Source: Escherichia coli (GTDB lineage Bacteria > Pseudomonadota > Gammaproteobacteria > Enterobacterales > Enterobacteriaceae). From it: a DNA stretch of 64,000 bases. The stretch lies in assembly GCF_003334355.1 (NCBI RefSeq), contig NZ_QOWP01000005.1; one strand, 5' to 3'. This document shows, piece after piece, positions 21,981-24,066 of the stretch. Every line of letters begins with the position of its first letter. The first letter of the stretch is position 1. The notes beneath the pieces were generated by a model, which did no database searches, was not told the origin of the DNA, and saw nothing but the letters and a program-made list of their open reading frames with translations. The position numbers and the translations under genes were made by a program.

Positions 21981-22727
21981 CTACAACTTCAGAATTTCTT
22001 TCACAAACGGAATGGTCAGCTTACGTTGCGCGGTAATCGACGCACGATCCAACTGATCCAACGTCATAAATAGCGTGCGCATTTCTCTGTCGAGCCGCTT
22101 CAGCAAGAAACGCCCCACATCTTCCGGCAGTTCAAAACCACGCAAACGCGCGCGTAACTGTAGCGCCTGCAACTTATCTTCATCAGAAAGTGGCTGCAAT
22201 TTGTAGATCTGCCCCCAGTCGAGTCGCGAAGCGAGATCCGGTAATCCCAGATTCAACTGCCGCGGTGGACGATCGCCGGTGATCAACAATCGTGTTTTGC
22301 CCGATTCCAGAATTCGATTGTAGAGATCGAAAATCGCCATCTCCCACAACTCATCGCCTGCAATACACTCAATATTGTCGATACAGACCAGCGACAAATG
22401 CTCCATACCGTCGAGCACTTCCGGAACAAACCAGGTGCGTTTATCCAGCGGGACATAGCCCACCGCATCGCCACGCTGCGACAATTCCGCGCAAGCCGCG
22501 TGCAGCAGATGGCTGCGCCCCGCGCCTTCGCGTGCCCAGAGATAGATGTAACCGCTATGTTCCTGACGCAGCACGTTTTGCAGCGCAGCCAGTAAAGAGG
22601 AGTTATCCCCCGGCCAGAAACTTGCAAAGGTTTCGTCGTCAGGAAGATAAAGTGGCAAAGAGAGCTGTGCCGGTGTGTTCAGAGATACCTCAACCAGGAT
22701 TTCACAAAATCGCGAGAAGTTTACCAC
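21981..22727 (-). CDS. hda: DnaA regulatory inactivator Hda (AAA+)
   Basis: Track ORF of 248 aa ([31 protein letters not shown]...). The mature E. coli protein is reported to start at the internal CTG (LNTPAQ…, here 22680-22682), giving 233 aa. Confidence 0.9.
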
Positions 22728-22776
22728 AGAATCCCATGATGTTTGAACCGGGCAGCAACACTGCCCGGTCGGTACA

Positions 22777-24066
22777 TTATTTGTCTGTTATATCCGCGTC
22801 TTCTGCGTCCAGCACCACTTCTTCAGGGCGCAGCACACTAATCAGTTTGAAGATCAAACTTAAGCCGATACCGACGATGGTCGCCAGCGCCATACCTTTT
22901 AACTCCGCCGCGCCGATGTTTACCTTCGCGCCACTGACGCCGATGATCAAAATCACGGAAGTCAGGATCAGGTTCTGTGCTTTGTTGTAATCCACTTTCG
23001 ATTCGATCAAAACACGAATACCGGAAGCACCGATGACACCATAAAGCAGCAGCGAAACGCCGCCCATCACCGGCAATGGGATCATCTGGATAGCGGCAGC
23101 CAGTTTACCGACGCAGGAAAGCAGGATAGCGAAAATCGCCGCCCCGCCGATAACCCAGGTACTGTAAACACGGGTGATCGCCATCACGCCAATGTTTTCT
23201 CCGTAAGTGGTATTTGGCGTAGAGCCAAAGAAGCCGGAAATCACGGTCGACAAGCCATTAGCAAACATCGAACGGTGCAGACCTGGATCGCGCAGCAGAT
23301 CTTTTTTGACGATATTAGCCGTTACTACCAGGTGCCCTACGTGTTCGGCAATAACCACTAACGCCGCTGGCAGAATAGTCAGAATGGCAAACCACTCGAA
23401 GCGCGGCGTATAGAGGGTTGGCAGCGCAAACCAGTGAGCATTAATAATCGGCGTGGTATCGACAATTCCCATTGCGAAAGAGAGCGCGTAGCCCACCAGC
23501 ACGCCAATTAAAATCGGGATAATTGCCAGGAAACCACGAAACAGCACGGAACCTAAAACCGTGACCGCCAGGGTGGTAATAGAGATGATGATGGTTTTGG
23601 AGTCTGGCGTTTGCCCTTCAGCCGGGAGTAAACCCGCCATACCGGCAGCTACGCCCGCCAGCTCCAGACCGATGACGGCAACGATTGCGCCCATTGCCGC
23701 AGGTGGAAACAGCACGTCCAGCCAGCCGGTCCCCGCTTTCTTCACGATAAAAGAAACCAGGCAGAACAGCACGCCGCACATAATAAAGCCGCCCAGCGCG
23801 ACTTCATACCCTAACGGCAACAGTAACAATACCGGTGAAATAAAGGCAAAGCTGGAACCAAGATAAGCCGGAATTTTCCCTTTACAGATGAAGAGATACA
23901 GCAGCGTTCCAATACCGTTAAATAACAGTACAGTCGCCGGGTTAATATGAAATAAGACGGGCACCAGGACGGTTGCACCAAACATGGCGAACAAATGTTG
24001 CAAACTAAGCGGGATTGTCTGTAAAAGTGGCGGTCTTTCACTCACCCCGATAGCACGGCGCGTCAT
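22777..24066 (-). CDS. uraA: Uracil:H+ symporter (NCS2 family)
   Basis: Track ORF 22777..24108; start at internal Met ([33 protein letters not shown]...) gives 429 aa. Confidence 0.93.

Follow-up and report, generated by a model that had tools for sequence, protein, structure and literature searches.

The 64,000-nucleotide stretch of Escherichia coli DNA analyzed here, referred to as the window, carries on its minus strand the gene hda, which comprises 233 codons plus a stop and whose product is the DnaA inactivator Hda (Table 1). Each of the 5,426 complete genomes of E. coli matches the window, the best at 99.9% identity over 1 kb. In K-12, hda (b2496, HDA_ECOLI, NP_416991.2, WP_001307333.1) has a spacer and start region identical in sequence to those of the window, and the Hda protein, the CTG start, and the gene order uraA-hda-arsC(yfgD)-bepA are also the same. 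K-12-like strains are ~99.5% identical to the window, with no difference of substance.

Table 1. Features at the hda start region, in window coordinates
Feature	Position	Strand	Basis
hda CDS	21981..22682	minus	ORF listing, NCBIfam scores, identical RefSeq 702-nt CDS
QLSLPL beta-clamp-binding motif, codons 6-11	22650..22667	minus	Translation; numbering of Kim et al. 2017
CTG (CUG) start codon of hda	22680..22682	minus	Sequence, RefSeq CDS, EcoGene 3.0, TetRP, conservation
Shine-Dalgarno GAGGT	22687..22691	minus	Conserved block at -9..-5
5' UTR of the hda-only mRNA, 29 nt	22683..22711	minus	Published TSS
Transcription start site (TSS) of the hda-only mRNA (G)	22711	minus	SMRT-Cappable-seq Supplementary Data 2
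Putative extended -10, TG-G-TAAACT	22718..22726 (TG 22726-22725, hexamer 22723-22718)	minus	Conservation and TSS spacing
GTG opening the 248-aa frame (false start)	22725..22727	minus	ORF listing and sequence
15-codon extension, read as non-coding promoter and leader DNA	22683..22727	minus	Profile models, indels, stops
Candidate weak -35, TTCAAA, 18-nt spacer to the -10	22742..22747	minus	Sequence
upp-uraA terminator hairpin (CCGGGCAG..CTGCCCGG)	22744..22769	minus	RNA fold and alignment; 3' end at 22744

The start of the gene is not the start of its reading frame. The longest minus-strand hda ORF, 22727..21981, encodes 248 aa and places 15 codons ahead of the CTG, as the original prediction had described in setting the opening of the long ORF 15 codons before the conserved N-terminus. 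The CTG is also where that prediction had put it, and can be read directly on the minus strand, which runs tct GTG gta aac at the upstream codon and gtt gag gta tct CTG aac aca ccg gca cag at the downstream one. An upstream ATG had been proposed to lie in the uraA-hda spacer. The location is correct, because the uraA stop codon is at 22779-22777 and the 94-nt spacer therefore includes the upstream codon, but that codon is GTG, and the nearest ATG (22737-22735) is out of frame with hda. Going upstream from the CTG, the first in-frame stop is a TAA at 22790-22788, which leaves 35 open codons in the hda frame. The probability that 15 codons are stop-free by chance is (61/64)^15, or about 0.5, so that the GTG-bearing open stretch is unremarkable and an in-frame GTG at this chance level carries no information on whether the extension is coding.

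Membership in the Hda family is clear and does not depend on the extension. The 233-aa form scores 474.8 bits against NCBIfam NF005982 (curated equivalog cutoff, 268) and 281.7 bits against TIGR03420 (cutoff, 194.8), and the 248-aa form scores no better, at 476.6 and 281.4, respectively. Precomputed Pfam assignments place PF00308 (Bac_DnaA) and PF22688 (Hda_lid) on the Hda protein and its relatives. The clamp-binding pattern QL[SP]LPL is present as QLSLPL at residues 6 to 11 of the CTG-initiated protein. In distant Hda relatives this motif begins between 1 and 8 residues from the N-terminus as called, most often 3, in keeping with its Gln at residue 6 of a 233-aa protein but not with residue 21, the position of that Gln in a 248-aa one. 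Literature on the identical K-12 protein describes Hda, together with DNA-loaded clamp, as stimulating hydrolysis of DnaA-bound ATP (RIDA).

Knowledge that E. coli hda functionally starts at the internal CTG, for a product of 233 aa, dates from 2008, and the core of the original prediction is in this sense established. EcoGene 3.0 attributes the CTG start, and with it a native N-terminus of Met-Asn-Thr-Pro, to Su'etsugu 2008, so that the N-terminal evidence reaches us second-hand, and lists yfjD as the second confirmed CTG start after hda. Tetracycline-inhibited ribosome profiling (TetRP) records in its Table S3 that the annotated hda start moved by 45 nt between 2006 and 2014, and scores the gene as "3. 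2014 = signal at 2014 initiation site" and not as "multiple." According to the scores in the published table, initiating ribosomes are thus found at the hda CTG in vivo. The crystal structure of the Hda-clamp complex (Kim et al. 2017) comprises residues 1 to 233, with the clamp-bound motif numbered 6-QLSLPL-11; the Hda chain of PDB entry 5X06 reads as a tag followed by MNTPAQ..., 233 aa, and the window protein matches all 233 residues with no visible mismatch. In the K-12 RefSeq record hda occupies 2618075..2618776 (702 nt, NP_416991.2), the same 702-nt CDS, as WP_001307333.1, is found in all six of the other RefSeq E. coli genomes sampled, and the RefSeq CDS opens with the C of this CTG. UniProt HDA_ECOLI is likewise the 233-aa form. 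A full-text literature search on hda with CUG or CTG returned EcoGene 3.0 as the only relevant source, and the DnaA reviews and a 2026 Hda paper make no mention of the hda start codon.

Comparison of start sites across orthologs, named as a check alongside the original prediction, came out in favor of the CTG, with the codon kept and the upstream frame not. The comparison set held one genome per species, 80 loci in all, every one from Enterobacteriaceae, to which 8 loci were added protein by protein from Yersinia, Serratia, Erwinia, Pantoea, Hafnia, Dickeya, Photorhabdus, and one further lineage. The aligned start codon is CTG in 80 of 80 Enterobacteriaceae and in the 8 others, or 88 of 88 Enterobacterales loci, a count to be read with the thin sampling outside Enterobacteriaceae and with the relatedness of the loci in mind, as these are not independent events. 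Among the 31 invariant-Leu columns of the 80 distinct coding sequences, codon 1 alone is without synonymous change, and CTG/TTG swaps are common at the other invariant-Leu codons of hda. Only 3 of the 163 invariant degenerate columns in these 80 sequences have an invariant codon.

The bases preceding the CTG are similarly constrained. Positions -9 to -5 read G in 79, A in 79, G in 80, G in 79, and T in 79 of the 80 loci, while the spacer at -4 to -2 varies freely, and GAGG ends 5 nt ahead of the CTG, placing the Shine-Dalgarno (SD) element at functional spacing. Judged from the alignment, a conserved GAGGT block followed by a variable spacer is the signature expected of an SD at optimal spacing. 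The 8 loci from other lineages also carry GAGGT(G)-NNN-CTG.

Synonymous sites just after the start (codons 2 to 21, 22620-22679) are unusually conserved as well, with P4 as CCG and S21 as AGT in 80 of 80 loci, Q6 as CAG in 78, and N2 as AAC in 76. This conservation of early codons may reflect constraint on the initiation region of a weak start. Weak start codons are maybe a general habit of hda genes, as non-ATG starts are called in the three distant hda relatives in question (52 to 64% identity; GTG, GTG, and TTG in L099:169, L100:301, and L101:301, respectively), although this is a sample of three.

A separate ambiguity is seen in Yersinia, Erwinia, Hafnia, Dickeya, Photorhabdus, Pantoea, and Serratia (L085, L087, and L091-L095), where the SD, about 9 nt upstream of the aligned CTG, reads GAGGTG and so contains an in-frame GTG two codons before the CTG. 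Many records, those of NCBI included, call a 235-aa Hda beginning MLLNTPAQ... from this GTG. Because the GTG overlaps the SD, these 235-aa forms are probably two codons too long. In Hafnia and Izhakiella, NCBI holds both 233- and 235-aa versions of Hda within the same species.

The 15-codon extension behaves as spacer and not as protein. In 43 of the 80 Enterobacteriaceae, the stretch from the last in-frame stop to the CTG contains no ATG, GTG, or TTG in frame, a stop codon stands just 4 to 6 codons upstream of the CTG in many of these species, and indels in the leader shift the frame between species. The profile models skip the extension, NF005982 aligning from residue 14 of the 248-aa form and TIGR03420 from residue 21, so that residues 1 to 13 are uncovered. 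A MAFFT alignment of 81 upstream regions shows discrete conserved blocks at the uraA terminator hairpin, TTC, TG-n-TAAACT, CG-TTT, GAGGT, and CTGAAC.

The record of E. coli strain SCPM-O-B-8794 (L005) has a 1-nt insertion in the leader (CCC for CC), about 15 nt before the CTG, that takes the upstream GTG out of frame, and its long ORF opens instead at another GTG, 8 codons upstream. The upstream frame is thus broken even within the genus Escherichia.

The GTG itself falls within one of these conserved blocks, and its last two bases are the TG of a putative extended -10 element. The pattern xTG-n-TAnnnT is found in 88 of 88 loci at -49 to -43 from the CTG, with the hexamer TAAACT in 75. Just 11 of the 88 have the homologous xTG in the hda frame with no stop before the CTG (frame 0, 11; frame 1, 52; frame 2, 25). 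From the -10 element a TSS was predicted at K-12 coordinate 2618805 +/- 2 ahead of consulting published data, and the agreement proved exact: SMRT-Cappable-seq Supplementary Data 2 lists an operon consisting of b2496 with its TSS at 2618805 (NC_000913.3) on the reverse strand. Coordinates were transferred through the identical sequence, the window position being the K-12 coordinate minus 2596094. This TSS follows the -10 hexamer by 7 nt and the GTG by 14 nt, and it precedes the CTG by 29 nt. The claim that the extension is spacer is supported by a frame that is not conserved and by a published TSS that lies downstream of the GTG.

As in extended -10 (TGn) sigma-70 promoters generally, the hda element has TG, one base, and a hexamer with A2 and T6, together with a weak -35 and a TSS 7 nt downstream. 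In the alignment, conservation of the leading TTC of the candidate -35 is 95% or higher. The element was missed by a generic consensus scan, which returned no promoter-like (sigma-70) site in 22500-23300; TTCAAA, the 18-nt spacer, and TAAACT give 8 of 12 consensus matches, and the scan threshold was 9. The case for a promoter is therefore built on the TG motif, on how well this motif is conserved, and on the position of the published TSS. From these we infer that TG-n-TAAACT acts as the hda promoter, an activity that we treat as putative. The Ettwiller 2016 Cappable-seq supplements hold no entry near hda, and an older, shallow TSS survey (Kim 2012), which used a 747-nt hda annotation, recorded only a 2-read start 620 nt upstream, inside uraA. 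A structured regulatory leader was considered and dropped, as folding of the hda 5' leader showed no significant structure (z = +0.63).

A second transcript reaches hda from upstream. SMRT-Cappable-seq places the end of the upp-uraA transcript at 2618838, which is 22744 in the window, and reports a upp-uraA-hda read-through operon with its TSS at 2620909. The terminator is leaky: 95 of 260 reads extend beyond it in M9, versus 8 of 214 in rich medium. As the GTG is upstream of the TSS at 22711, it is present on the read-through RNA only and absent from the hda-only mRNA. The upp-uraA operon is pyrimidine-regulated, so that pyrimidine supply may in part influence the transcription of hda.

Folding of the read-through RNA (22640-22790, minus strand) pairs GUGGUAAA, in the -10 region, with UUUGCCAC, in codons 8 to 11, at an overall z of -2.0 that comes mostly from the terminator hairpin. 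This pairing would be lost where the -10 region reads GTGTTAAA and is probably due to chance.

Considered together, these data make us highly confident that hda is translated from the CUG at 22682-22680 as a 233-aa protein and that the 45 nt upstream are promoter plus a 29-nt leader, not protein. RNA polymerase starts the hda-only transcript at 22711, probably from the extended -10 TG-G-TAAACT, and the 30S subunit pairs with GAGGU and then initiates at the CUG. The resulting 233-residue Hda has its clamp-binding motif at the extreme N-terminus, at residues 6 to 11. The GTG would be promoter DNA, supplying the TG of the extended -10, and is transcribed only through read-through of the leaky terminator.

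It is conceivable that a minor 248-aa isoform is made from the GTG on the upp-uraA-hda RNA, with a 15-residue extension before the clamp motif. The RNA that contains the GTG does exist and is frequent in M9, no stop interrupts the frame between the GTG and the CTG, GTG as such initiates far more strongly than CTG does, and the GTG has a weak GGGA 4 nt ahead of it. We nevertheless regard such an isoform as very improbable, given that TetRP places its signal at the CTG site only, that the in-frame xTG is confined to the 11 loci and the frame is broken in L005, that the 43 species noted above have no upstream in-frame start, that residues 1 to 13 of the extension fall outside every Hda family model, and that the clamp motif stays within 1 to 8 residues of the N-terminus across the family.

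Least credible of all, and in our judgment almost certainly wrong, is a start at the first downstream canonical codon, the TTG at codon 9 (22658-22656), to give 225 aa: such forms stand in some older annotations (Klebsiella, Serratia symbiotica, and [Pantoea] beijingensis) and in public data (P0070, P0111, and P0112; K. pneumoniae KPN_02819, at 678 nt), and callers limited to ATG, GTG, and TTG pick this codon where no upstream canonical start exists, but the resulting protein would lose Q6 to S8 of the QLSLPL bound to the clamp in the crystal structure, codon 9 varies like an ordinary Leu (among 80 species, 42 have TTG, 37 CTG, and 1 TTA) and has nothing resembling an SD ahead of it, codons 1 to 8 are conserved as protein, and the TetRP signal is instead at the CTG.

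Initiation at the CUG, with 233 aa, is not how the gene has always been annotated. The 2006 K-12 annotation of hda was 747 nt long. The 248-aa form is widespread in Logan, ENA, and GenBank records, the 248- and 233-aa sequences each occur on 1,000 or more contigs in the public collection, and Hda forms of close relatives also come at 241, 238, 235, 225, and 200 aa. The expectation that automated annotation would over-extend this gene therefore holds for public collections but not for the current NCBI pipeline, which uses the CTG start in every E. coli record sampled. Older annotations are truncated where no upstream canonical start is available, as in KPN_02819 (Kim 2012; 678 nt, 225 aa) and a 200-aa Yokenella form (P0125), and with truncation the clamp-binding motif is missing from the predicted protein.

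The gene thus stands as a standard cautionary case, in which callers restricted to ATG, GTG, and TTG give 248, 241, 235, or 225 aa depending on the species, and forms called too long or too short remain abundant in public protein collections. The correct N-terminus, with the motif at residues 6 to 11, matters for anyone expressing or modeling Hda. For E. coli nothing in this is new. The placement of the false start within a conserved extended -10 and the invariance of the CTG strengthen the known case and leave it unchanged.

In E. coli reporters, CUG initiates at 1 to 2% of AUG and AUU also at about 1 to 2%, while GUG and UUG initiate at 10 to 100% of AUG. A better start codon would accordingly be expected to raise hda initiation roughly 10- to 100-fold. 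Because initiation always inserts fMet, a change of CUG to UUG, GUG, or AUG leaves the protein unchanged, and a single-base change of the CTG to a better start is seen in 0 of 88 Enterobacterales lineages. We infer that the weak CUG start, at about 1 to 2% of AUG, has been kept by selection for low Hda abundance. The combination of a near-cognate start with a good SD, leading to low translation, is shared with infC (AUU), pcnB (AUU), and yfjD (CTG). The AUU start of infC underlies IF3 autoregulation. The two genes differ in this respect, since the role of the weak start is autoregulation for infC, whereas for hda it would be low dosage.

A more elaborate proposal, which we find possible but rather doubtful, is that the CUG is a selected regulatory device, in which initiation is kept very weak by purifying selection and, perhaps through sensitivity to IF3, ties Hda dosage and the inactivation of DnaA-ATP to the state of translation, with a second input possibly coming from pyrimidine-regulated upp-uraA read-through. 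Whether or not the codon is regulatory in this sense, the weak start is a plausible cause of the low copy number of Hda, whose dosage controls the re-initiation of chromosome replication.
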